The notes under the pieces: model-generated
What the model saw: the letters and a program-made list of their open reading frames with translations, nothing else
Told to the model about the DNA's origin: nothing
The model's database searches: none
Virus record (IMG/VR): IMGVR_UViG_3300028569_002801
Coordinates: 1-64,000 of that record
Strand: one strand, 5' to 3'
DNA: 64,000 nucleotides
Origin: a virus
Shown here: positions 1 to 13,676 of the stretch, one piece after another
How positions within the stretch are numbered: the first letter of the stretch is position 1
Layout of the letters: each line of letters begins with the position of its first letter
Program-made: the position numbers and the translations under genes

Positions 1-306
1 TCATAGTTCTTGAATTTGAATCATTATCCAATCTACTTCTCCTTCAGTTTGGTTTCCAATAATATCTTCCGCAATTGGTGTATTATATGTTATATCCCAA
101 TCATGTTCGTCACCATAAAGTATTGCAACTTCCCATTCACTTTCATCTGATGTATATGAACCATATCTAAAACCTTTTTTAGATGTGGGACTTGGTAACT
201 TAAACCTAACAACAGATATACCATACCCATTAGGGAAAAATAATAGTCCGTGTAACCCCTCATAGTTTGGGTGGGGTTTAAATACTATGTCTTTAAATGA
301 TTTCAT
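1..306 (-). CDS. hypothetical phage protein
   Basis: 101-aa ORF, phage-like composition, no family recognised. Confidence 0.7.
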   Translation of the reverse strand: MKSFKDIVFKPHPNYEGLHGLLFFPNGYGISVVRFKLPSPTSKKGFRYGSYTSDESEWEVAILYGDEHDWDITYNTPIAEDIIGNQTEGEVDWIMIQIQEL

Positions 307-318
307 ATCACCAATTAA

Positions 319-471
319 TTATAAGAACGTTTTTTTGTGTTTTGTTTTTCTATTATAAAGATTCTTTGGCGTTTCAACTCTAGATACAAATCTCCCATCA
401 AAGAATCCATCCTCAACTTGATCCTTTCTTACTTGTGTTCTTTTCATCTTATGTTGATCATATGTCTTCAT
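319..471 (-). CDS. small basic protein, ArfA-like motif (not in ORF track)
   Basis: Manual translation MKTYDQHKMKRTQVRKDQVEDGFFDGRFVSRVETPKNLYNRKTKHKKTFL; F..RVE..K..Y.RK.KHK resembles the ArfA core; TACCTTTG promoter at 487-494. Confidence 0.6.
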   Translation of the reverse strand: MKTYDQHKMKRTQVRKDQVEDGFFDGRFVSRVETPKNLYNRKTKHKKTFL

Positions 472-505
472 CTCATTTGTTTTTTACAAAGGTATAAAAT
501 ATTAT

Positions 506-760
506 TTACCACTTTCTTTTTTTCTCAAGTTTTTTGGTTTTTTGTTCTTCCATCATTGTGTGGTATTCATCTTTAGTTAACCTTTTAAACGAATCTTCAT
601 CAATATTAAAATTACTAAACCTTTTTTTAACACTTGCCTTTGCATGGATGAGGTTTTTACTCCACACAATATTAGAACCTATAACCTTATTGTTTTCAAC
701 CATATCAAAAACATATAGGAACTCACCTTCTTTATTTGTCATCAACTTTTCCATCTTCAC
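506..760 (-). CDS. hypothetical protein
   Basis: 84-aa ORF in operon orientation. Confidence 0.6.
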   Translation of the reverse strand: MKMEKLMTNKEGEFLYVFDMVENNKVIGSNIVWSKNLIHAKASVKKRFSNFNIDEDSFKRLTKDEYHTMMEEQKTKKLEKKRKW

Positions 761-773
761 TTTTTTTTATTTG

Positions 774-854
774 TACCCCCGGAGAGACTCGAACTCTCAC
801 ACCGCTTGGCATCAGATCCTAAATCTGACGTGTCTACCATTCCACCACGGAGGC
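774..854 (-). tRNA. tRNA-Leu(TAG)
   Basis: GCCTCCG/CGGGGGT acceptor, TCAGA-TTTAGGA-TCTGA anticodon arm, long variable arm, GTTCGAG T loop. Confidence 0.93.
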
Positions 855-861
855 ATTTATA

Positions 862-1572
862 TTACCAATTTTTAATTCTTTCTTTCAGCTCATCAAGTGT
901 TATTGAACAACTATAATTCTTTTTATTGTTTTCACTATGTAATAATAATTTACAATTTGCAGGATGTTTAATGATTTCAGGGTCAACTCCATTTATAAAA
1001 CCCTCCCTTACACTATACATATGATCCTTACTAACTCCACCTAAATTATTACCTTTATTTTTAGGACTATACCATCCATATTCATTTACAATAGTTAAAT
1101 CAAATTTTTCAACATACTGTTTTATATTAAAATCAAAAACACACAAAGGTTTATAAAATTTATAAAATTTAGTTTTACAATTATCACAAATTAATTTGTG
1201 TTTTTCAATAACCTTACTTTCCTTACAAAATCGACAAATCTTAGATTCAGTAATCTTTTCTTTTTTAGGTTTAATTAATTTTTCTCTAACTTTTTGTTTT
1301 TGTTCTTCACTAACAACTCTACCTTTATTATTAAACATTGCAGCACAAGAACTATTACAAAATTTCCTATTATGGGATATTAACCCATCAAACTCATCAC
1401 TACAATTAAGACAAGTTATTTTTTTATGGTAAACAGTTTTAATCCCTAACCTATTGGATCTATTCATAATTGATCGATATGTTACACCCATAAGGTTAGC
1501 AATAGTTTGGTATCTAACCCCTTCGTCAACTAATTTTTCCAATTCCTCGTCCTTTTCTTTCGTCCATTTCAT
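862..1572 (-). CDS. putative HNH-like homing endonuclease (HTH, Zn fingers, NUMOD3-like segment)
   Basis: CxxC pairs, FCNSSC, SEEQKQKVREK, C-terminal DHMYS...HPANC...ENNKK; lies between two tRNA genes. Confidence 0.65.
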   Translation of the reverse strand: MKWTKEKDEELEKLVDEGVRYQTIANLMGVTYRSIMNRSNRLGIKTVYHKKITCLNCSDEFDGLISHNRKFCNSSCAAMFNNKGRVVSEEQKQKVREKLIKPKKEKITESKICRFCKESKVIEKHKLICDNCKTKFYKFYKPLCVFDFNIKQYVEKFDLTIVNEYGWYSPKNKGNNLGGVSKDHMYSVREGFINGVDPEIIKHPANCKLLLHSENNKKNYSCSITLDELKERIKNW

Positions 1573-1626
1573 ATAAATAAATATTACAAAAAAGAGTTTA
1601 TAACGAATTTTGAACCTATTTTTTTG

Positions 1627-1711
1627 AGTAAGTGGTCAGATTTGAACTGACGTGATACTTTCGTATACCGGTTTTGCAGACCGGCGGTTTCAACCACTCA
1701 CCCACACTTAC
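1627..1711 (-). tRNA. tRNA-Cys(GCA) with long variable arm
   Basis: GTAAGTG/CACTTAC acceptor, U73, CCGGT-CTGCAAA-ACCGG, variable hairpin ATAC-GAAA-GTAT, GTCAG-TTCAAAT-CTGAC. Confidence 0.88.
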
Positions 1712-1716
1712 ATATT

Positions 1717-2172
1717 TTAACGGCAGTGGTGATCTGCCGCTCTTGTTGCAATTTGATTGTCAGGTTTAATATTTGCTTTGTAACCTAACGACGTTGCCCA
1801 CCCAACAACGGGAGGAACTAGTTTTGAACTGTAATGTTTTTCTTCGCAGTTATAATCCAAATCTATTTCAACCTTAACTTTTACTTTTTGAGTTAACCAT
1901 TCGGCAACCTCAATTGAATAATCAGCTTCATTCCATAATCGTGTCCACTTATCTTTAATCTTCTTAACCTTTTGTTTATGAAGGATGTAGTGGACACCAC
2001 GATTTCCATACCTGTAAGCAATTACCGTAACGTATACGGTACTTCTTCTGTGGTTTTGTGAATCTGTACCGATGTGTATCTCAACCCAAGGACATTCCTT
2101 TAAAACGTCTAAGGTGTGATTTACCACATCAGGAACCGTATCACCATTAACCGTTCTAAATACTCTGTTCAT
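1717..2172 (-). CDS. RNase H-like YkuK (DUF458) family protein
   Basis: IHIGTDSQ...VIAYRYGNRG...RLWNEA.YS...IDLDYN...AADH motif pattern. Confidence 0.8.
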   Translation of the reverse strand: MNRVFRTVNGDTVPDVVNHTLDVLKECPWVEIHIGTDSQNHRRSTVYVTVIAYRYGNRGVHYILHKQKVKKIKDKWTRLWNEADYSIEVAEWLTQKVKVKVEIDLDYNCEEKHYSSKLVPPVVGWATSLGYKANIKPDNQIATRAADHHCR

Positions 2173-2188
2173 TGTTTCTATTTTTTTG

Positions 2189-2261
2189 TGGACAGAGAGG
2201 GTTTCGAACCCCCGACTCCAAGAGCTTCAATCCTGAGCTCTACCAACTGAGCTACCTATCC
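2189..2261 (-). tRNA. tRNA-Phe(GAA)
   Basis: GGATAGG/TCTGTCC acceptor, AGCTCAGTTGGTAGAGC D arm, loop TTGAAGC, GGTTCGAAACC. Confidence 0.9.
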
Positions 2262-2756
2262 TTATTTAACTTCAAACGCATGTAGTAATATACGTTTTTT
2301 CTTGGTTGAGTCCTCGTGGTTACCGATTACCACACCATCTTTGATTGTGAAGGCGTGACGACTAACTAACATAAAGAATGTCCCAACAGGGTTTTGTTTT
2401 GCAAATGTACCAACAGTCATTTTACGTTTAACTCTTTCACCATTTACTTTAACCTCGTACTCCAAAGTTCGTCTGTTGTTATTATTTACTTTACCAACAC
2501 ACTTAACTTTTTTGTAGTTTACTTGACTTCTATTTTCTGCAAGTTTAGTCATTTTATCTACAGTACCATAAGTACCGTTACGATCTCTACGATAAAAATT
2601 TTCTCTAACGTATTTGTGAGCGTAATCGTAAGATACATCAAAACAAGATGCAAATGCTCTTACAACACAATCGTTGGTTTCATTTTTTGCGATTGCAGAT
2701 TCTTCATAACCTTTAATGGCTTTTCCTGTAGTACAATATGGTAGTGCGTCTTTCAT
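2262..2756 (-). CDS. hypothetical protein (NDCVVRA motif, possible peptidase-like fold); start reassigned to MKDALPY
   Basis: Upstream part of the tracked ORF overlaps tRNA-Trp; ATG at 2756 lies 4 nt below a TATCTTTA promoter element. Confidence 0.7.
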   Translation of the reverse strand: MKDALPYCTTGKAIKGYEESAIAKNETNDCVVRAFASCFDVSYDYAHKYVRENFYRRDRNGTYGTVDKMTKLAENRSQVNYKKVKCVGKVNNNNRRTLEYEVKVNGERVKRKMTVGTFAKQNPVGTFFMLVSRHAFTIKDGVVIGNHEDSTKKKRILLHAFEVK

Positions 2757-2803
2757 ACTGTAAAGATACGAAATCTTTTTTAATTGGCAAAATTTAATTT
2801 TAG

Positions 2804-2874
2804 CACATGGTGTTAGAATCGAACTAACCCGTCGAGGTTTTGGAAACCTGACCGACACCTTGTCTGTACCATGT
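2804..2874 (-). tRNA. tRNA-Trp(CCA)
   Basis: ACATGGT/ACCATGT acceptor, G73, AGGT-TTCCAAA-ACCT, GTTAG-TTCGATT-CTAAC; compact D arm. Confidence 0.85.
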
Positions 2875-2912
2875 AAATTGCCCGACCTATCTCGGGACCG
2901 ACATCGGATCCG

Positions 2913-2985
2913 TACCCCCACAGAGATTCAAACTCCGATCTTTCCCTTAGAAGGGGAACGTCCTGTTCAGTTGGACGATGGGGGC
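2913..2985 (-). tRNA. tRNA-Arg(TCT)
   Basis: GCCCCCA/TGGGGGT, TTCCC-CTTCTAA-GGGAA, T loop TTTGAAT. Confidence 0.87.
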
Positions 2986-2990
2986 AAATA

Positions 2991-3165
2991 AAAGATGATA
3001 AATGACTTTATCAGGAATCTGGGGTTCGTATCACTACGATGCTTCACACACCATTAGAGAGTCGGGTTATTACATCAATACAATTAAGATTGAATACCTA
3101 TCCTTAGTGTGTACCCTTACGACACGTCTCTCCACGTCTGTCATTCTACGTTTTGTATCATCTTT
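2991..3165 (-). ncRNA. unidentified structured RNA in tRNA spacer (~175 nt)
   Basis: Closing stem AAAGATGATA/TATCATCTTT, then AATGAC/GTCATT, GGAGAG/CTCTCT, GTCG/CGAC, GGGT/ACCC. Confidence 0.55.
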
Positions 3166-3167
3166 TG

Positions 3168-3240
3168 TACCCTCAAAGAGATTCAAACTCCTATCTCCCG
3201 ATCCGTAGTCGGGTGTTCTCTTCAGTTGAACTATGTGGGT
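3168..3240 (-). tRNA. tRNA-Arg(ACG)
   Basis: CCCGA-CTACGGA-TCGGG anticodon arm, acceptor with one mismatch, T loop TTTGAAT. Confidence 0.87.
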
Positions 3241-3244
3241 AATT

Positions 3245-3373
3245 AAAGAATTTTGGTCAACCACTCGCATCCCACCAATCTCTTGTATCAAACTTTTTGT
3301 AGTCCAAACGATTATATCTCCTACGACTCATTCTCAACTCACTTGCCTAAGCCTTGTCCGTTGTAAATTCTTT
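3245..3373 (-). ncRNA. unidentified structured spacer RNA (~130 nt)
   Basis: Closing stem AAAGAATTT/AAATTCTTT, higher GC than flanks, no credible ORF. Confidence 0.4.
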
Positions 3374-3375
3374 TG

Positions 3376-3449
3376 TGTGTATGACAGGTTACGATCCTGC
3401 GACCTCTTGAACCACAATCAAGCACTCTGCCAACTGAGCTACATACACC
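3376..3449 (-). tRNA. tRNA-His(GTG)
   Basis: G-1, GTGTATG/CATACAC, CTTGA-TTGTGGT-TCAAG; A discriminator and T loop ATCGTAA are atypical. Confidence 0.88.
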
Positions 3450-3455
3450 ATGTTG

Positions 3456-3523
3456 TCCCGTATGTTGGACTTGAACCAACCTCAAGTCGGATATGAGCCA
3501 ACTTTGATCCCTGATCATACGGG
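3456..3523 (-). tRNA. tRNA(CAT) (Met or Ile2) with minimal D arm, 68 nt
   Basis: CCCGTAT/ATACGGG, GATC-AGG-GATC, GTTGG-CTCATAT-CCGAC, GTTGG-TTCAAGT-CCAAC. Confidence 0.7.
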
Positions 3524-3529
3524 TTATTG

Positions 3530-3613
3530 CGGAAGATATTGGAATCGAACCAAATACCCGAAGGTACATCTCGCTTAGCAGGCGGACCCCATCCCCATCA
3601 GGGTTTATCTTCC
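3530..3613 (-). tRNA. tRNA-Ser(GCT)
   Basis: GGAAGAT/ATCTTCC, G73, loop CTGCTAA, variable arm TACC-TTCG-GGTA. Confidence 0.85.
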
Positions 3614-3670
3614 AAAGAGCGTAGTGGGACTGCAGTTCCCCAAGGCTCCTACGCAAGTTACTCCTCTTTG

Positions 3671-3747
3671 TCGGCACAGTAGGAATTGAACCTACATGAA
3701 ACCAATTAACCTTTCAACCGCGTATCAGGCGGAGGGTATATGTGCCG
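3671..3747 (-). tRNA. D-arm-less tRNA-Ile(GAT)-like RNA with long variable arm
   Basis: CGGCACA/TGTGCCG-A acceptor, 8-nt linker, CCGC-CTGATAC-GCGG, extra hairpin TGAAA..TTTCA, GTAGG-TTCAATT-CCTAC. Confidence 0.65.
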
Positions 3748-3906
3748 TGGTGCGTATTTAGGAGTATTTCTTAACCACCCCCTCAGCTCGCCAGCGTCTC
3801 GGTGGTCGATACTTTAGTCGTGATGAACCCATCTGTCACTTCTTACTAGATTCTTGTGGTCTACTTACTCGAGACGTTACCACTGGGGAACCCAACATTG
3901 TATCTT
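3748..3906 (-). ncRNA. unidentified structured spacer RNA (~160 nt)
   Basis: Long stem CCCCAG..CGTCTCG / CGAGACG..CTGAGGGG enclosing TAGA/TCTA and GTGA/TCAC hairpins. Confidence 0.5.
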
Positions 3907-3984
3907 TGGCGGGTCAGGTAGGGCTCGAACCTACTATCCCTCGCTTAACAGGAGAAAGCTTATAACCACTTAAGCTTCTGGTCC
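3907..3984 (-). tRNA. tRNA-Asn(GTT), CCA encoded, mismatched stems
   Basis: Loop CTGTTAA, GTAGG-TTCGAGC-CCTAC, 3' GCCA; two acceptor-stem mismatches. Confidence 0.78.
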
Positions 3985-4045
3985 AATACTTGAACGTGTT
4001 ACCTAATTACACTAAGGGAGGACTCGAACCGACATTTTTCACTCG

Positions 4046-4126
4046 TGGGAGAGAAGGGACTCGAACCCCCAAGGCTTTCGCGACAGATTTACAGTCTGCT
4101 GAGCCAACCAATTGCTCAACTCTCCC
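4046..4126 (-). tRNA. tRNA-Tyr(GTA)
   Basis: GGGAGAG/CTCTCCC-A, GCAGA-CTGTAAA-TCTGT, variable arm GC-GAAA-GC. Confidence 0.93.
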
Positions 4127-4188
4127 AAAAATCTAATTCTATGATTCCGTCGTCACATAAGGACTATGAATTAGTAACGGTCTCCTCG

Positions 4189-4262
4189 TACACCCTACAG
4201 GATTCGAACCTGTGACCTGTTGTATGTAAGACAACCGCTACTACCAACTGAGCTAAGAGTGC
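4189..4262 (-). tRNA. tRNA-Val(TAC)
   Basis: GCACTCT/AGGGTGT-A, GTTGT-CTTACAT-ACAAC, GGTTCGAATCC. Confidence 0.92.
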
Positions 4263-4328
4263 TTATTTTAGTTTTTCTTTACGAATATAACCATTTTTTG
4301 GTATAAATCGCTCAGTTTTACTAAATTT

Positions 4329-4961
4329 TTAATCCTTCAAATTTTGGTATTCTTTTTTTAACTTGTGACATCTATTATAATTTCCCCCTTTAGCCGCTAA
4401 ACCAACTTCTATTAATGCTTGTCTCATATTCCAATTATGTATTAATAAGACATTTAAAAGTTTTTCATCTGAAATTTTATTTCTAAGTTGTTTTGTTTTA
4501 TTTCTACCCCTCCATGTGTCAGTCAATGCGTGACAATTTGGGCAAAGTAACTCTAAATTTTCTCTTTGGTTATTAAAGTGATTTCCGTCCTTATGTTCTA
4601 ACTCTAATGGAATTTCAACCCCCATCCAAGTTTTTAATTCACATTTATTACATGAACCATCTTGTTCATAGTAAATCCTTTTTTTTAGTGATTCGAATTT
4701 TAAATCTTCATATTTTGAATTGATAATTTTTATCTTATCGTTTTCTTTTCTTTTTTCCGCGATTTGGTTCCAAAAACCATCAGGTCTTTTTCTATTTGCT
4801 TCTTTAACTTTTTCAGAATTTTTGTTTGATTTAGATTTTTTTTCCTTATCTTTTTCTGACCACACCCTACTATTACGGCACATTAAAGAACAATAACTAA
4901 TCAAACCTTTTTTTGGTTCAAACTCTTTTTGACATTTAATACAATTTTTCATAATTCCCAT
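4329..4961 (-). CDS. HNH homing endonuclease
   Basis: CNKC...LELEHKDGNHFNNQRENLELLCPNCH HNH motif; lies between tRNA-Lys and tRNA-Val. Confidence 0.88.
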   Translation of the reverse strand: MGIMKNCIKCQKEFEPKKGLISYCSLMCRNSRVWSEKDKEKKSKSNKNSEKVKEANRKRPDGFWNQIAEKRKENDKIKIINSKYEDLKFESLKKRIYYEQDGSCNKCELKTWMGVEIPLELEHKDGNHFNNQRENLELLCPNCHALTDTWRGRNKTKQLRNKISDEKLLNVLLIHNWNMRQALIEVGLAAKGGNYNRCHKLKKEYQNLKD

Positions 4962-5024
4962 TTATTAATAAATATCAAGTCGAACCTAAAAAACACATAA
5001 AACTTAAAAAATACTTAAAATTTG

Positions 5025-5095
5025 TTCCCCCGGACGGTAACGCTCCGACTTCTTTCCGTTAAAAGCGGAAAGCTTCACTTTAAAGCTTCGAGGGA
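5025..5095 (-). tRNA. tRNA-Lys(TTT), atypical T loop
   Basis: TCCCTCG/CGGGGGA-A, TTCCG-CTTTTAA-CGGAA, T loop AGCGTTA. Confidence 0.82.
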
Positions 5096-5097
5096 TT

Positions 5098-5133
5098 CTA
5101 TTTACGACTCTTGTCATACTTGTCACTTTCCAT
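5098..5133 (-). CDS. 11-codon micro-ORF MESDKYDKSRK
   Basis: ATG preceded by an A-rich region; stop 2 nt before tRNA-Lys. Confidence 0.3.
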   Translation of the reverse strand: MESDKYDKSRK

Positions 5134-5167
5134 GATACTTGTTTTTTATTTGTTTATTTATTTATAG

Positions 5168-5240
5168 TAGGGTAGACCGGACTCGAACCGACATCGTCCA
5201 CGTCCCAAACGTGGTGACTTACCAATTAGTCAACTACCCT
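5168..5240 (-). tRNA. tRNA-Pro(TGG)
   Basis: AGGGTAG/CTACCCT-A, CCACG-TTTGGGA-CGTGG, GGTTCGAGTCC. Confidence 0.92.
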
Positions 5241-5310
5241 AGTTAAAAAATCAATACCCTGACTCCTTTCGAACTTTGAGGATTCGTATCATTCATTCTG
5301 TATTGATTCG

Positions 5311-5396
5311 AGGAGAGAGCGGGATTCGAACCCGCGGAACCGTGAAGTTCTCCGGTTTTCAAGACCGGTGCAATAAACCAACTCTACCATCTCTCC
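5311..5396 (-). tRNA. tRNA-Ser(TGA)
   Basis: GGAGAGA/TCTCTCC, CCGGT-CTTGAAA-ACCGG, long variable arm. Confidence 0.92.
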
Positions 5397-5402
5397 TTAT
5401 TG

Positions 5403-5473
5403 TTGTTCCCCAAGGACTCGAACCCCAATTCCACGGACCAAAACCGCGTGTCCTTCCATTAGACGAGGGAACA
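5403..5473 (-). tRNA. tRNA-Gln(TTG)
   Basis: TGTTCCC/GGGAACA, CGCGG-TTTTGGT-CCGTG, GGTTCGAGTCC. Confidence 0.9.
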
Positions 5474-5509
5474 AAATAAAGCCAATATTTCAAAGAACTT
5501 TTTCTTTTG

Positions 5510-5582
5510 AGGTTCCTGTCAGGTTCGAACTGACGACTCCGGGTTACAAAGCCGGGGTATTACCAAACTATACTAAGGAACC
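5510..5582 (-). tRNA. tRNA-Thr(TGT)
   Basis: GGTTCCT/AGGAACC, CCGG..TTTGTAA..CCGG, GTCAG-TTCGAAC-CTGAC. Confidence 0.88.
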
Positions 5583-5596
5583 GAATTTTTGGGTAT

Positions 5597-5628
5597 AAAA
5601 AAACCCGAACTGTTTTGAGTTCGGGTCT
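5597..5628 (-). terminator. intrinsic terminator directly upstream of the tRNA array (candidate attenuator)
   Basis: ACCCGAACT-CAAAAC-AGTTCGGGT followed by a T tract, about 15 nt before tRNA-Thr. Confidence 0.8.
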
Positions 5629-5660
5629 TATATTTCTTTTATATTTTTAGTTAATCTTTA

Positions 5661-5771
5661 TCAACTCATAAATGAAAATGCCCTAATATGCGACTTAAGC
5701 GTACGATACACGTTAAACGACCACTGAATGCTCGGGTTACAAATGTTCATATGTCTATTAGTTGTTTTCAT
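5661..5771 (-). CDS. candidate attenuator leader peptide, 36 aa
   Basis: MKTTNRHMNICNPSIQWSFNVYRTLKSHIRAFSFMS, ends TGA-TAA; TATTTATA motif just upstream; codon set mirrors the array anticodons. Confidence 0.6.
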   Translation of the reverse strand: MKTTNRHMNICNPSIQWSFNVYRTLKSHIRAFSFMS

Positions 5772-5981
5772 CTTGTTATAAATATATCGTTGTTTCTAAA
5801 AGTTTTAATTCTTGTACGAATTTAGTTGTTTTTTTCTATTTGACAAGTGTTTTTGTCATTTATTTTTAAATATTCTTCTTCTTGTTCTTCCTCCAACCTA
5901 CGTAAAAACACGTAGTAATCTTCAGAGTTTATGAACTCATTGTGTATTAATTCTAAAATTTCTTCCATAAAATTGTGTTAG

Positions 5982-6055
5982 TGATCCCGAATGGATTCGA
6001 ACCATTGACCTACTCATTAGAAGTGAGTTGCTCTATCCAACTGAGCTACGGAACC
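5982..6055 (-). tRNA. tRNA-Arg(TCT), second copy, upstream of the leader/terminator
   Basis: GGTTCCG/CGGGATC-A, AGCTCAGTTGGATAGAGC, ACTCA-CTTCTAA-TGAGT, GGTTCGAATCC. Confidence 0.95.
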
Positions 6056-8355: not shown

Positions 8356-9735
8356 TTATAAATATGGTTTAATAAATTTATCGAATCTAGTATCAGGAGC
8401 GTCAGGGTTACCGGCTTTCAATGCTAACTTGAAGAATTCGTCATTTGGGTCAATTTGTTTACTTGGGAAGATACCTTTTGGATCATACTCTTTATTTACT
8501 TGTTGTTGTAAAACTTTTGTAATTTTATTATTTGTGTCCCAATATATTTTCCACCTAACAACAGGTCTAACGTATGGTTGACCATTTACGTTCATTTGAT
8601 ATTTAATCTCGTAACTAGACATGTGTGAGTCTGCCGATTTTTTATCTTTGTCTACCTGAAGTTGTACCTGACCACACGAATCAAAGGTGTTTGCTTGTGC
8701 TCCAGCATTTAATGAGTTTTTACCGTTACAGAAATAAGCGCCGGTTAATACAAACCCATCTCTACCTAATTTTTTGAACTCATCAATATTATTTGGTATT
8801 TTACCTCCAATTGGGTCTTTTGGTGTATTATCTGTTGAGCTACTTGATGCCGTTGCACATACATCCATTTCTACTATTACGACTTGTCCCGGATTTTTGT
8901 ATTTTGACGTGTCTCTTGTCGAGTCGATGTTACCTCCTGTATCAACAGTATAACCAACAACTTGTGCAGTCACATTTGGTCCAAAATTTAATTTTATTGC
9001 CGGTAACTGTTTTTGTAGTTCAGCATATAAACCATTGGCTCTTTGAACCGCAAGTTCCTTGTTTTTAAGTCCGTCTGATGCACTATAAGAAACATTATCA
9101 GGATATGGTTGAACATTATAATTATTGTCCATTTCAGGTTTTATAACCTTAGAATACTTGTTACTTGCCCCACCTATAAGTTTAATTCCAGCAATGTACG
9201 CCTTACCCGCAGCATAGTCTTTACTAACTGCCGGATTATTTTGTAATTCAGCTTTAACTTTATTAATAAAATTTGTAATGTTTGCAGGATTTGACGTTAC
9301 TTTGGCAGCAAAACTACCTATCACAGTTATCTTCGTACAATTAGCACCAAGAGCTGAAGGTGATACACCATCAATAATTGTTTGTCCTCCTGCGGTTACT
9401 CCACTATCCATACCACCACTTGTCGATTGTTGTGTTCCTAAATTTTGTTGTGTGGTACCACCACCTGTACCTGTTGAACAACCTGCAGGTTCTCCAAAGA
9501 CTCTTGTACAAATAGCCTCAATTCCTTTTGGGTTAGTTTGTTCTCTCCAATTAGGCGTTAATCCTTCTGATTTAGATGCGTAATAATATTTATTACCTTC
9601 TTTTTTATATTGATAAGGGTCACCCTTTCCTCCTTGCTTAACTTCTTGTTCTGAAAGAACTTGTTTTATTGCTTGTTTATGTAAACCTAAAATTCTATTT
9701 TTTTCACTTTCAGTGATTATAAACTTATTTCTCAT
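8356..9735 (-). CDS. hypothetical virion-associated protein
   Basis: N-terminal ITESEKNRILGLH...VLSEQ motif; central GGAS...NKELAVQRA resembles an OmpA-like segment (weak). Confidence 0.7.
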   Translation of the reverse strand: MRNKFIITESEKNRILGLHKQAIKQVLSEQEVKQGGKGDPYQYKKEGNKYYYASKSEGLTPNWREQTNPKGIEAICTRVFGEPAGCSTGTGGGTTQQNLGTQQSTSGGMDSGVTAGGQTIIDGVSPSALGANCTKITVIGSFAAKVTSNPANITNFINKVKAELQNNPAVSKDYAAGKAYIAGIKLIGGASNKYSKVIKPEMDNNYNVQPYPDNVSYSASDGLKNKELAVQRANGLYAELQKQLPAIKLNFGPNVTAQVVGYTVDTGGNIDSTRDTSKYKNPGQVVIVEMDVCATASSSSTDNTPKDPIGGKIPNNIDEFKKLGRDGFVLTGAYFCNGKNSLNAGAQANTFDSCGQVQLQVDKDKKSADSHMSSYEIKYQMNVNGQPYVRPVVRWKIYWDTNNKITKVLQQQVNKEYDPKGIFPSKQIDPNDEFFKLALKAGNPDAPDTRFDKFIKPYL

Positions 9736-9763
9736 GATGTTTTTTTAATAAATATCACATAAA

Positions 9764-9792
9764 TAAAAAAAGGTGAGATTTCTCTCACCTTT
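9764..9792 (-). terminator. intrinsic terminator
   Basis: AGGTGAGA-GAAA-TCTCACCT plus T tract. Confidence 0.8.
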
Positions 9793-9854
9793 CAGGGCCG
9801 AAACGGATTATGTTTCGAACTACCACCACTTTGTTTTAAAGAGAAACAAAGAAA

Positions 9855-10121
9855 CTACCCCTCTAACTTGGATTTTGCAACCACCATTTCAGCCATGGAC
9901 ACCTCCTTTGCTAGACCGATTACCATACACTCCTTTAACATTTGTGCCGGTACGTGAATCAAAAAGTCTTTCCCGTTAAACGTTGAAAGGTTATCACCTA
10001 ACTCTATGGATGCGTGTATCATTTTTAAAAACAATTTGAACTGTACGTCATCCATAAATGTCTCATTCAAAACTTCCCCGTATTTAGGGTGAACAATCGT
10101 TACGTGTTTTAGTGTTGCCAT
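9855..10121 (-). CDS. hypothetical protein
   Basis: 88-aa ORF. Confidence 0.7.
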   Translation of the reverse strand: MATLKHVTIVHPKYGEVLNETFMDDVQFKLFLKMIHASIELGDNLSTFNGKDFLIHVPAQMLKECMVIGLAKEVSMAEMVVAKSKLEG

Positions 10122-10162
10122 ATCTTTGATTTATGTAAATGTAATACCTTTTTTTTAAATTA

Positions 10163-10582
10163 TCAAATTTCTTTGTACTCAATTTTTGAAATAACTATAT
10201 TCATTTCACGGTTATCAATTCCAAAATATTTTAGTTCTTGTGTTACTGCACCTAAAATAGCGTTTCTGTAGTATTTGTTGTGTGTTTTAGCGTTTCGTTG
10301 ACAATAACGGTTACTTCCATAATAAAAGTATTCTCCCTGAGATCTCATATCAACAATGACATCAATTTCGTATACGTATTTTTCTTTATTTTCTAACCAT
10401 TGTGTATGTCTGTGTGAATACTTTCTAACTGATTTAATTTTAATCACTGAGTTATTTAGATCACTATCCAAATAATACCCATCATTTTGTAATGGTCTAA
10501 TTAACATATTTTTAGTTAGTTTTTTAACAGACTTAATGTGTGTGTCTGAGATTGCCTTTCCTATTTTGTCCCCGTTTTCCAT
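10163..10582 (-). CDS. hypothetical protein
   Basis: 139-aa ORF; TATCTTTG 4 nt upstream of ATG. Confidence 0.7.
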   Translation of the reverse strand: MENGDKIGKAISDTHIKSVKKLTKNMLIRPLQNDGYYLDSDLNNSVIKIKSVRKYSHRHTQWLENKEKYVYEIDVIVDMRSQGEYFYYGSNRYCQRNAKTHNKYYRNAILGAVTQELKYFGIDNREMNIVISKIEYKEI

Positions 10583-10614
10583 ACATCAAAGATAGAAAAA
10601 AAAATTTAATGCAC

Positions 10615-10647
10615 AAAAAAATGGATACAAATATTATCTGTATCCAT
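10615..10647 (-). terminator. intrinsic terminator downstream of the large ncRNA
   Basis: ATGGATACAGAT-AAT-ATTTGTATCCAT plus T tract. Confidence 0.75.
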
Positions 10648-10687
10648 CAATTTTTTTCCTTATAAGATTTTAAACCTAAAAATAAAA

Positions 10688-11615
10688 ACCTGAGATTACA
10701 GTTTTTGTTGAGAATCTTTAGAGTCATTATTGTTTCTACTCTTATCCACCATCTTTTGAATGGTATTTCTCAGTGACGATTATTTAGGTGAATCACTCCT
10801 TGAGGTACTAGCTACTCTCTCATTACTCAACTCTCTTCGAGACTGCCGTCCCAACTCTTCCTTGCGGGAATAGAGGTTTTTGGTAAGAATATCGTTAAAC
10901 TTGCGGTTTAAACGATGCAATGAACGGCTCATTACTATGTAGTCACCTTTCACTATTACCTGACGAACACTTTTGCTTTTTAGTTTTAGTTTTACCTTTT
11001 CCATAAAAGTTTTTGTGTTGTGGATTGACCAAAGCAGTGGTCCGTCTTTCAGATTCGTTGTCTTTTGAACAACGAAATACCAAACTGCTTCGTGAAATGT
11101 CCCCATCTCAATATTTCAAGACTACTTCGAGATTTAACCTTTGGTAAGGTTCAATCAAGGTTAGTAACAACACCACTTGTACACCAACATACCTTTCGGT
11201 TTTAAGTATCCTATCATAATGGAACACGCAATAATAAAATTGGATAACCTTATTTTTTGCAATATCCCTACGAGTTATTCCTATTGATGTTCCCATCTCA
11301 AACTGACAACCCACATTGCCAATTCATCTAACCACTTTCCCTACAGCGTTGCCCTCGGTACTAAAGATTAAACGGTATCCCGCTTGTGTACTCAATCTCA
11401 ACAAGTCCGAAGACTCACCAAGACGCAAACCCATTACACGTTAGGTTCACTTTATCCTACTTTCGTAGTTTATTTTAATGGACCATACACGGCCCAATGA
11501 CTTAATTTAGTTTCACTCTTAAAGTAAGGGAGGTGTTAAGTCTCTCTTTTAAATGTGACGACTGTTTCGGTCGGATTTAGATTTTCAAAGAACGTTTCAG
11601 GACTTTTCCTGATTT
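10688..11615 (-). ncRNA. large ornate ncRNA, GOLLD-like candidate
   Basis: ~0.9 kb without a credible ORF, GC above background, many GNRA/UUCG hairpins, long-range CTGAGA/TCTCAG pair, own promoter, boxA and terminator. Confidence 0.7.
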
Positions 11616-11629
11616 GTTTTACAAAGTTA
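11582..11629 (-). promoter_or_regulatory. Bacteroidota-type promoter (-7 TAACTTTG), 5' hairpin and boxA-like GTTCTTTGAAAA
   Basis: TAACTTTG at 11622-11629, TTG upstream, GTTCTTTGAAAA at 11582-11593. Confidence 0.65.
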
Positions 11630-11671
11630 AGTCTTTTTTTTTATTTAGACAAGTACTTTATGAACTTTTTT

Positions 11672-11818
11672 TTAAACTTTTTCTACGTACACCTCGTGTG
11701 TTCCGTATTTGTTAGCTTGATCAGTAGCAAACTCACCGTTAGGTGTGTAAAACTTCTCCCCTTTTGCTCCGTAGTAGTAGTACATTACGTTCTCAACCAC
11801 TTCAGTGTTTTCACCCAT
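11672..11818 (-). CDS. small hypothetical protein, 48 aa (not in ORF track)
   Basis: MGENTEVVENVMYYYYGAKGEKFYTPNGEFATDQANKYGTHEVYVEKV; A-rich leader; TAGATTTG promoter at 11880-11887. Confidence 0.6.
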   Translation of the reverse strand: MGENTEVVENVMYYYYGAKGEKFYTPNGEFATDQANKYGTHEVYVEKV

Positions 11819-12025
11819 TTTTTTTGAGTTTAAAGGTTAATATTTCAATTTATTGTTAGGACGTTTCCTAATTGTTTTACAAATCTAATTATATTAAATT
11901 GTTTTGTCAAATATTTAAATGAAAAAAATTGATTTTTTACGGAAGTAAATATAAATATAACTATGTACACCAAAAGTTACTTTAAAATACAAATTTTTTA
12001 TTCTTTTTAATTGTATTTATACTAT

Positions 12026-12382
12026 ATGAATATTTTTATACACGATAATCAATTTAGATGTAAGGTTTGCGTAACCCCTCAATCTGTTCAAGAAGGAATG
12101 AAACACAAAACATTCAACATGAATTTTAATGGTATGTTTTTTATTATGCCAAGTAATGGAAAACAAAGTTTTTGGATGTATGAGTGTATTGAAATGTTAG
12201 ATATAATATTCATAGATAATGATACTATAACAGAAGTACACCATAACTGTTTACCTTGTGATGATGAATATGCTTGTGAACAATATGGGGGGGTTGGTGA
12301 TAAGGTACTAGAAGTTGCTGGTGGTACTTGTCAAAAATTAGATATTAAAAAAGGTGACAAAATAAAAATGTCAATGTATTAA
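12026..12382 (+). CDS. DUF192 family protein
   Basis: GM.F......SFWM....LDIIFID...VLEVAGG...IKKGD; ATG at 12026 after TATTTATA. Confidence 0.85.
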   Translation: MNIFIHDNQFRCKVCVTPQSVQEGMKHKTFNMNFNGMFFIMPSNGKQSFWMYECIEMLDIIFIDNDTITEVHHNCLPCDDEYACEQYGGVGDKVLEVAGGTCQKLDIKKGDKIKMSMY

Positions 12383-12567
12383 TCGTTTTCATACTTCCAA
12401 ACCATATTTGTTGTGTAAGGTTTAAGAGTGAACCCATTATCTTTAATTAAGTTAATGTATTCAGTATCATTATTTGGTGTATCCACTTCCTCAACAATAA
12501 TATATTTTTGTTTTAAATATCTTTGTTCTAAAATTATGTTTACATTTTTAATAGTGCTTTTTTTCAT
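12379..12567 (-). CDS. hypothetical protein
   Basis: 62-aa ORF, TATTTAT upstream. Confidence 0.5.
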   Translation of the reverse strand: MKKSTIKNVNIILEQRYLKQKYIIVEEVDTPNNDTEYINLIKDNGFTLKPYTTNMVWKYEND

Positions 12568-12603
12568 ATATAATAAATACCATTAAAAACAAAAAATCCA
12601 AAA

Positions 12604-13455
12604 TTACTCTTGGATTTCCTCTGATACTGCCTGTAAGTTTTTAAAATACTCAACTCTTGTTTTTGCTACCTCAACATAGTTTGGTGATAGTTCAATACCC
12701 AACCAACGTCTTCCTAATATTTCCGCAGCAACTAAACTAGTTCCTGAACCAGCAAATGGATCTAAAATTATATCGTTTTTGTAGGACAATATTTTAATCG
12801 CCTTAGTTGGGATGTCCATTGAGAACGTTGCCTTGGTGAGTGATTTAGTATCTGCAAAGTAATTCCACTGACCAAAAACAAGTTCCATAAATTCCTTCTT
12901 ATCTTGTTCTTCATATACCACTTTCTTTTTTATGGTTCCATCCTCCTGTTCAATTTCAGTTGGTGTCCCTTTCCATTGTGGTTCTCCTTTAACTTTTTTG
13001 ATGTGTAATTTTTTATATGCCAAAATAACACATTCTTTTGGGTTATAAATATACGGGCTTGACGGGCTCATCCAAGATCCCCAAGCGGTTGTCTTACTAC
13101 GATGAGGTGATTGTTCTTCTAAATCTACAATCCCAAAGAACCCAAACCCAATTTCTTTCATTATTTGATACATCTCAGAAACAAAGAAAATTCTTCCTCC
13201 CTTCTTTTGTCTGTTGATTTCATATGGTATGTTTAACGCGATACGTCCGTCATCTTTCAAAACATTATACGCTTCTGTTAACCAATTTTTAGCAAACACC
13301 AAATACTCATCAAATGGTGCATCATCTTCGTGAACATCATAAGCAATACCAACACCATATGGTGGTGATGTAACAATCAAGTCAACACAACCTTCAGGTA
13401 ATGTTTTCATCACCTCAATACAGTCCCCATTTATTATTTTTCCTGTTTCTATCAT
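12604..13455 (-). CDS. DNA methyltransferase, N6A/N4C beta class
   Basis: TSPPY precedes DPFAGSGT; start reassigned to MIETGK, overlapping the upstream stop. Confidence 0.92.
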   Translation of the reverse strand: MIETGKIINGDCIEVMKTLPEGCVDLIVTSPPYGVGIAYDVHEDDAPFDEYLVFAKNWLTEAYNVLKDDGRIALNIPYEINRQKKGGRIFFVSEMYQIMKEIGFGFFGIVDLEEQSPHRSKTTAWGSWMSPSSPYIYNPKECVILAYKKLHIKKVKGEPQWKGTPTEIEQEDGTIKKKVVYEEQDKKEFMELVFGQWNYFADTKSLTKATFSMDIPTKAIKILSYKNDIILDPFAGSGTSLVAAEILGRRWLGIELSPNYVEVAKTRVEYFKNLQAVSEEIQE

Positions 13456-13676
13456 TTTTTCTCTAATGTTTCTATATGGTGTTGTAGATACCATAATGCT
13501 TTTTTTAAGTCCTCTAACTCTTTTTCTTTATTTTTTTTACCGGCTCTTGATATGTACTTAACAGTATTACCAAGTGAGAACCCTAAGTCCCAATTATCTA
13601 TCACCTTGATTGCTTCGTATGGGTTTGATTCTCCCCCATAATGTTCTGGGTGGTTTACTTGTTCATTTGTTTTCAT
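13452..13676 (-). CDS. DUF3310 (SaV-like) protein
   Basis: VNHPEHY...EAI.VI...FSLGNTVKYISRAGKK...EDLKKALWYL. Confidence 0.88.
   Translation of the reverse strand: MKTNEQVNHPEHYGGESNPYEAIKVIDNWDLGFSLGNTVKYISRAGKKNKEKELEDLKKALWYLQHHIETLEKK

Follow-up and report, generated by a model that had tools for sequence, protein, structure and literature searches.

What RNA is made from a stretch of roughly 0.9 kb of phage DNA in which no credible protein gene is recognized, and by which route is it made? We address this question for a locus on the minus strand of a 64,000-nt stretch (hereafter, the window) that comprises positions 1 to 64,000 of the IMG/VR virus record IMGVR_UViG_3300028569_002801. With a CheckV completeness of 38%, this record of 114,715 bases and ~30% G+C is a fragment of a large phage. 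Its label in IMG/VR is provirus; nearly all genes in the window lie on one strand, and an array of 14 tRNA genes at 773-6055 lies on the same strand as the locus and 4.6 kb downstream of it. Altogether, the record resembles part of a large lytic phage more than it does a provirus. An earlier note on this DNA had proposed that the locus encodes either a member of the GOLLD class or a new large RNA class and that it is expressed like an rRNA operon. GOLLD RNAs are among the largest bacterial and phage RNAs of unknown function, and the structure of the cage that they form was solved only recently.

Using Rfam 15, we found that the GOLLD family (RF02032) matches 10687-11092 on the minus strand of the window over the complete model (positions 1-416/416) with 311 bits and an E value of 3.8e-88, i.e., about twice the gathering score of 150 bits. 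The match was recovered in a scan of the whole record, and it is the sole strong non-tRNA match in the window. We also considered ROOL, group I and group II introns, RNase P, and tmRNA, none of which reached the gathering score in the region. Of the 5' half, the Rfam model includes no more than the last hairpin, and it continues through an A-rich linker and the 3' domain; because most of the 5' half is missing from the model, separate evidence is needed for the other 400-500 nt of the interval described in the earlier note. This evidence comes from relatives of the locus and from the env-38 GOLLD RNA. We located 82 IMG/VR loci via a 20-base pattern taken from the 3' domain, and, based on BLASTN, homology extends from 11494 to ~10690 (a shared length of 810 nt) in nearly all of these loci, with 69-90% identity. 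In a MAFFT alignment of 48 non-identical full-length loci, conservation steps up at ~11500 and drops abruptly at 10690. Moreover, as judged by eye against the published env-38 construct (PMC12286853), the start of that construct, ATGGCCGCTATGGTCGTCAAATAAATACGAAAGTAGGATAAAGTGG, is homologous to the window from 11497 onward, and similar blocks follow through the 5' half. Because of these conservation edges and the start of the env-38 construct, we place the predicted mature RNA at ~11496-10687 on the minus strand (~810 nt), where sequence comparison identifies it as a full-length env-38-type GOLLD. The RNA itself extends a known family by one member and does not represent a new class. Thus, the first of the two identities proposed earlier is borne out by the score over the full model and the homology of the 5' half to env-38, and the same two findings exclude the second. 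The RNA is composed of the following parts, listed from 5' to 3':

11093-11496, minus strand, GOLLD 5' domain (the cap domain in env-38), assigned by homology to env-38 judged by eye and by its compensatory pairs
11457-11468, minus strand, hairpin CTAC-GAAA-GTAG within the 5' domain, read from the sequence
11400-11413, minus strand, hairpin AGTC-TTCG-GACT within the 5' domain, an insertion restricted to the subclade of the window
11191-11200, minus strand, hairpin ACC-GAAA-GGT within the 5' domain, read from the sequence
11030-11092, minus strand, last hairpin before the linker, with a conserved UCAAAAG loop (Rfam model positions 1-62)
11056-11074, minus strand, hairpin CGTTGT-TCAAAAG-ACAACG within the preceding feature, read from the sequence
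10962-11029, minus strand, A-rich variable linker between the two domains, single-stranded in the Rfam alignment and less conserved
10687-10961, minus strand, GOLLD 3' domain, the universally conserved ring domain (RF02032), with covarying helices
10897-10909, minus strand, hairpin AAAC-CGCAA-GTTT within the 3' domain, read from the sequence
10860-10867, minus strand, hairpin CC-GCAA-GG within the 3' domain, read from the sequence

The relatives, numbering more than 80, together with this locus give a deep and well-diverged alignment of the env-38-type 5' domain. RNAalifold analysis of the 48 loci predicts 220 pairs for the whole core, of which 113 have compensatory changes on both sides. The helices of the 3' domain are 87-100% canonical, most of them with compensatory pairs, and two helices of the hairpin before the linker covary (11092-11084/11038-11030 and 11076-11068/11062-11054). 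For the 5' domain, we used an alignment (A1) of 29 sequences that are less than 93% identical to each other. Here, 73 of the 107 pairs are compensatory; paired cells amount to 97.2% as observed versus 83.5% in shuffles (0/500 reach the observed value), and sliding the partners by 1-3 columns lowers the value to 35-41%. Such a structure is far from what chance would give, and the fold is kept by covariation. The hairpins, promoter, boxA-like word, and terminator named in the earlier note are all present in the minus-strand sequence. A CTGAGA/TCTCAG pair, which had been suggested to close the 3' domain, is right in its first half only: CTGAGA is present (10772-10767), but it pairs with TTCTCA at 10714-10709 in a consensus helix of the Rfam model with four covarying pairs, while the terminal TCTCAG sits in the loop of the last hairpin.

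These data also bear on the reading that the region is protein coding or holds a large RNA class unrelated to GOLLD. The only thing that could speak for it is the presence of two ORFs in the region, with lengths of 108 and 68 aa. The former (11106-10780) is open in only one of the 48 relatives and the latter in 17 of 48, and the lengths of the region among the 48 relatives are spread evenly over the three values modulo 3. Because the ORFs are not kept and indels do not come in threes, we reject protein coding, in agreement with the earlier statement that no credible protein is encoded here. Together with the Rfam match, the env-38 homology, and the lack of any other Rfam family at the gathering score in the region, this coding test has already refuted the reading, and we give it practically no weight.

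The env-38 GOLLD RNA forms a D7 14-mer nanocage as determined by cryo-EM (Kretsch et al., Nature 2025, PMC12286853), and its linker is disordered and points into the cage (10.1101/2024.12.08.627333). The RNA of the window resembles env-38 in that its 3' domain matches the full Rfam model, its 5' domain begins at the same place and is similar along its length, an A-rich linker lies between the domains, and its 3' domain has both of the CGCAA hairpin loops. Both RNAs come from lake phages and are linked to tRNA genes, and relatives of the locus adjoin tRNA-Met as env-38 does. They differ in that the sequence of the locus has diverged and includes the extra hairpin at 11413-11400 and in that its subclade has its own promoter and terminator and no adjacent tRNA-Met. 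By homology with the env-38 14-mer, a mature RNA of ~810-870 nt would be expected to assemble into a multimeric cage. ROOL RNAs are likewise found in phages and tRNA islands, are of similar size, and form cages, but they are unrelated to GOLLD in sequence and fold, and no ROOL match reached the gathering score anywhere in the window.

How is this RNA made? The sequences flanking the core contain the following elements:

11650-11652, minus strand, TTG, conserved to at least 90% across the 48 aligned loci and located 20 nt ahead of the -7 box, likely the -33 element of a promoter of the Bacteroidota type
11622-11629, minus strand, candidate -7 box TAACTTTG (consensus TAnnTTTG), recognized in the sequence and in relatives
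11597-11612, minus strand, 5'-terminal leader hairpin TCAGGA-AAAG-TCCTGA in the boxB position, with compensatory changes in relatives
11582-11593, minus strand, boxA-like word GTTCTTTGAAAA, kept in relatives and matching a word of 16S leaders
11497-11581, minus strand, variable leader from the boxA-like word to the mature RNA, gap-rich and with an identity to the window of 0.22-0.58, including a small hairpin at 11573-11559
10649-10686, minus strand, short trailer, non-conserved in the 48-locus alignment
10613-10648, minus strand, intrinsic terminator consisting of a 13-bp hairpin and a T run (five terminator-like sites in the region versus 1.0 expected)

The terminator corresponds to the one claimed earlier at 10615-10647. 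A TAnnTTTG box is present upstream of GOLLD in 48/48 relatives, mostly 34-36 nt before the boxA-like word, and we infer that transcription starts near 11616. The leader hairpin is kept in most cassettes with changing stems (CAGGA/TCCTG, CGGA/TCCG, CAGA/TCTG, TTCGG/CCGAA, and CTTGG/CCAAG). The word GTTCTTTGAA is likewise present in 48/48 related leaders at 20-108 nt before the RNA core, with variable flanks and at a variable distance to the -7 box. In 667 kb of related loci, we counted 69 copies on the GOLLD strand and 2 on the other strand, with ~1.2 expected. Sixteen copies lie outside GOLLD leaders; most of these belong to an additional promoter-hairpin-word cassette located some hundreds of bases further upstream, and several more precede tRNA genes, as in two loci (L045 and L075) in which the word lies 22 nt before tRNA-Met. 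In a third of the loci, the word is far from any -7 box, e.g., after a tRNA gene, and it is, therefore, not tied to the promoter. A search of the whole record for repeats of the cassette returned only a twin at 11887, which lacks the boxA-like word; other boxA-like words in the record are single ones at 5498 and 25309, the latter inside an ORF.

The same word precedes rRNA genes. We compared the phage leaders with 106 distinct 16S leaders from metagenome contigs that carry the 16S 5' signature GGATGAACGCTAGCGG, which we take to be typical of Bacteroidota. The exact word GTTCTTTGA is present at -200 to -40 in 46 of these 106 leaders (median -120); it was never found on the opposite strand in this interval, and it is present further upstream in only 4/92. 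A relaxed pattern matches 83/106 leaders. In many of the 16S leaders, a -7 box of the form TAnnTTTGCA precedes the word by 27-70 nt, often with a hairpin in between. The phage leader and the rrn leader share the order of promoter, 5' hairpin, and boxA, and the word is identical to that of Bacteroidota-type 16S leaders; the product is in both cases long, untranslated, and highly structured, and the leader is apparently not part of the abundant RNA. The two differ in that the GOLLD locus has a single product rather than 16S-23S-5S and that a small protein gene lies between its two promoters, and also in that the participation of a Nus complex would be predicted here by analogy. Moreover, boxC was not found in the GOLLD leader, and RNAduplex analysis of 45 loci gave no signal for a processing stem between leader and trailer (median z 0.13 versus shuffles). 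Thus, the earlier proposal of rRNA operon-like expression with a boxA is supported comparatively by the conserved word, its strand bias, the covarying hairpin, and the match to 16S leaders.

The boxA-like word also resembles the boxA sequences described for Bacillus subtilis and Escherichia coli (PMC13753749, PMC5725501). It fits B. subtilis boxA, AUGAUCUUUGAAA, which in rrn leaders follows directly after a 5' hairpin and binds NusB (PMC13753749), and the gamma-proteobacterial consensus GYTCTTTAANA (PMC13753749, PMC5725501). In the literature that we searched, we found no paper linking GOLLD with boxA or antitermination and none giving a Bacteroidota boxA. These comparisons suggest that the phage cassette is a copy of the promoter and leader found at the rrn operons of the likely host phylum. 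A member of the Bacteroidota is the probable host, as judged solely from the promoter type and the boxA match: TAnnTTTG was not enriched upstream of ORFs in the record (3/90 versus 3/82 in the control), which leaves the boxA match and the conservation of the GOLLD promoter as the basis of the host assignment. Scanning genome contigs for the GOLLD pattern gave one match; this 9.8-kb contig belongs to a Caldora MAG, has no more than the 23-nt pattern in common with the core, and does not point to a host.

Sequence data from environmental samples suggest that the RNA is abundant in lake metatranscriptomes. Most of the stretch is contained in 14 lake or freshwater DNA runs, and ~40% of it in six metatranscriptomes. 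We mapped the RNA contigs of four lake or marine metatranscriptomes (four studies) on positions 9000-13000 of the window and found a contig word depth of 36-4873 across 10742-11545 versus 0-29 in the flanks. Because the flanks were mapped too and are nearly empty, carry-over of DNA is unlikely, and environmental RNA libraries contain the GOLLD region at high depth relative to its flanks. The contigs cover ~10660-11540, mostly at depths of hundreds to thousands, and fix neither the ends, the strand, nor the level of the RNA. One contig of 876 nt consists of 10660-11520 followed by 17 diverged letters (to 11537). The high-depth contigs stop near 11537 and exclude the leader hairpin and the boxA-like word, fading between ~11537 and 11546. 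In two studies, contigs terminate at 10656-10660 with no loose ends, a weak hint of a 3' end. These observations hint that the abundant RNA runs from ~11540 to ~10660 and lacks the first ~75 nt of the predicted primary transcript. Two explanations fit: removal of the leader, or a start of the abundant RNA downstream of it.

Based on the conserved promoter, hairpin, and boxA-like word, which are arranged as before Bacteroidota rRNA genes and suggest how GOLLD is made, we favor, with moderate confidence, a model in which the locus is the GOLLD gene of a large, tRNA-rich lake phage with a probable Bacteroidota host and in which the RNA is made via an rRNA-style boxA leader. According to this model, the host RNA polymerase would start ~6 nt after the TAACTTTG box, and the first 35 nt of the transcript would contain a small hairpin followed by GUUCUUUGAAAA, the word of Bacteroidota-type rRNA leaders. 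By analogy with rrn operons, NusB-S10 and the other Nus factors would load at GUUCUUUGAAAA, and the resulting antitermination complex could make transcription of the 0.9-kb untranslated RNA resistant to Rho and might aid its folding during synthesis. The leader would then be trimmed off, and the transcript would end at, or be trimmed back from, the terminator at 10648-10613. We speculate further, giving this slightly less than even weight, that Bacteroidota lake phages have copied the rRNA leader of the host for the synthesis of their stable RNAs, namely GOLLD and some of the tRNAs, with the Nus complex transcribing and perhaps helping to fold the RNA before the leader is discarded. The use of host boxA by phages has precedents in the nut sites of lambda and in a boxA behind the early promoters of T7 (PMC10931766, PMC3709561). 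In these phages, as here, a phage transcript has the host boxA word just behind promoters for the host polymerase; however, theirs fronts operons of early proteins, with N and boxB as additional requirements in lambda, whereas here the products would be stable non-coding RNAs (GOLLD and tRNAs). The rRNA-style leader is what this locus adds beyond the known GOLLD family. It suggests a route to high-level, Rho-resistant synthesis of a 0.8-kb untranslated RNA, and, if the model is correct, the biogenesis of the GOLLD cage would be a hijack of the production line for ribosomal RNA, which would provide a first experimental handle on GOLLD.

A different reading accepts GOLLD as real and takes GTTCTTTGAA as something other than a boxA that loads Nus factors, e.g., an RNase processing site, a sequence bound by a phage protein, or part of either an extended promoter or the initially transcribed region, with a chance resemblance to the rrn word. 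The absence of the leader from the contigs of the abundant RNA would fit a processing signal, and the fixed spacing of 34-36 nt from the -7 box in most loci would fit a promoter-proximal element. Speaking against it, the word also occurs far from any -7 box, it precedes Bacteroidota-type 16S genes by ~120 nt, exclusively on the sense strand, and it fits the boxA sequences of B. subtilis and gamma-proteobacteria. We consider this reading unlikely, while giving it real weight. It draws further support from Acinetobacter phage Bestia (MW316733.1), in which we identified an unannotated GOLLD at 2416-2782 (221.8 bits) inside a tRNA array, between tRNA-Asn and tRNA-Asp and behind a sigma-70-type promoter, with no boxA-like word in 5.3 kb. 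Because Bestia has GOLLD without boxA, we reject boxA as a general GOLLD feature and regard the leader as a trait of the present clade. LR745206.1, a published but unannotated record of a 634-kb uncultured phage, has at 850-2360, in this order, a -7 box, GTTCTTTGAATT, a tRNA-like gene that was not typed by ARAGORN, tRNA-Met, GTTCTTTGAAAT, and GOLLD, a layout that, as judged from sequence, is the same as that of the phage cassette.

The locus itself has a second promoter, and a gene for a small protein lies between it and the GOLLD promoter:

11856-11910, minus strand, upstream twin promoter TTGACA-N17-TAGATTTG with hairpin TTAGGA-AACG-TCCTAA and no boxA word, read from the sequence
11672-11818, minus strand, conserved gene for a 48-aa microprotein directly upstream of the GOLLD promoter, with homologues in relatives

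The 5' hairpin of the twin promoter is nearly the same as that of the GOLLD promoter, and the twin promoter drives the microprotein gene. It is conceivable that the GOLLD promoter is not used for GOLLD and that the RNA is instead cut from a longer transcript that reads through from the promoter at 11910-11880 or from further upstream. Some read-through does exist, as low-depth RNA contigs bridge 11583-11920 and 11546-11735, and, in relatives, GOLLD and a tRNA-Met gene before or after it seem to form one unit. These bridging contigs have depths of 4-12 compared with hundreds to thousands on GOLLD, and the -7 box and the preceding TTG at the GOLLD promoter are conserved in relatives. We, therefore, regard GOLLD synthesis by read-through as improbable and retain the promoter with the -7 box at 11622-11629 in the boxA leader model.

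Homologues of the microprotein (37-96% identity) are encoded on the same strand and at most 700 nt upstream of GOLLD in 30/51 related loci and share the motif Y.Y..G....T..N..FA..RA..GT..VY.E. No Pfam or PHROG family matched the microprotein, and all scores in a protein-atlas look-up were below 0.9. As a conserved neighbor, the microprotein is a candidate partner; it could be a partner of GOLLD or only its neighbor.

An adjacent tRNA-Met is found in about half of the relatives. In 17 of 62, tRNA-Met starts 9-18 nt after the 3' end of GOLLD, and, in ~13 others, it is located 225-540 nt upstream of the GOLLD core. The subclade of the window has no tRNA-Met on either side and has its own terminator. 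That GOLLD is so regularly linked to tRNA genes suggests a role in tRNA function or translation during infection. At the head of the tRNA array of the window lies the single word mentioned above:

5487-5498, minus strand, second boxA-like word GTTCTTTGAAAT between tRNA-Thr and tRNA-Gln, read from the sequence

This word is located just after a terminator that precedes the tRNA array and recalls the spacer boxA of rRNA operons. Among the ORFs neighboring the locus, eight matched no Pfam family; the other, at 12604-13494 on the minus strand upstream of the locus, encodes an N6/N4 DNA methyltransferase (PF01555, E 1.8e-32).
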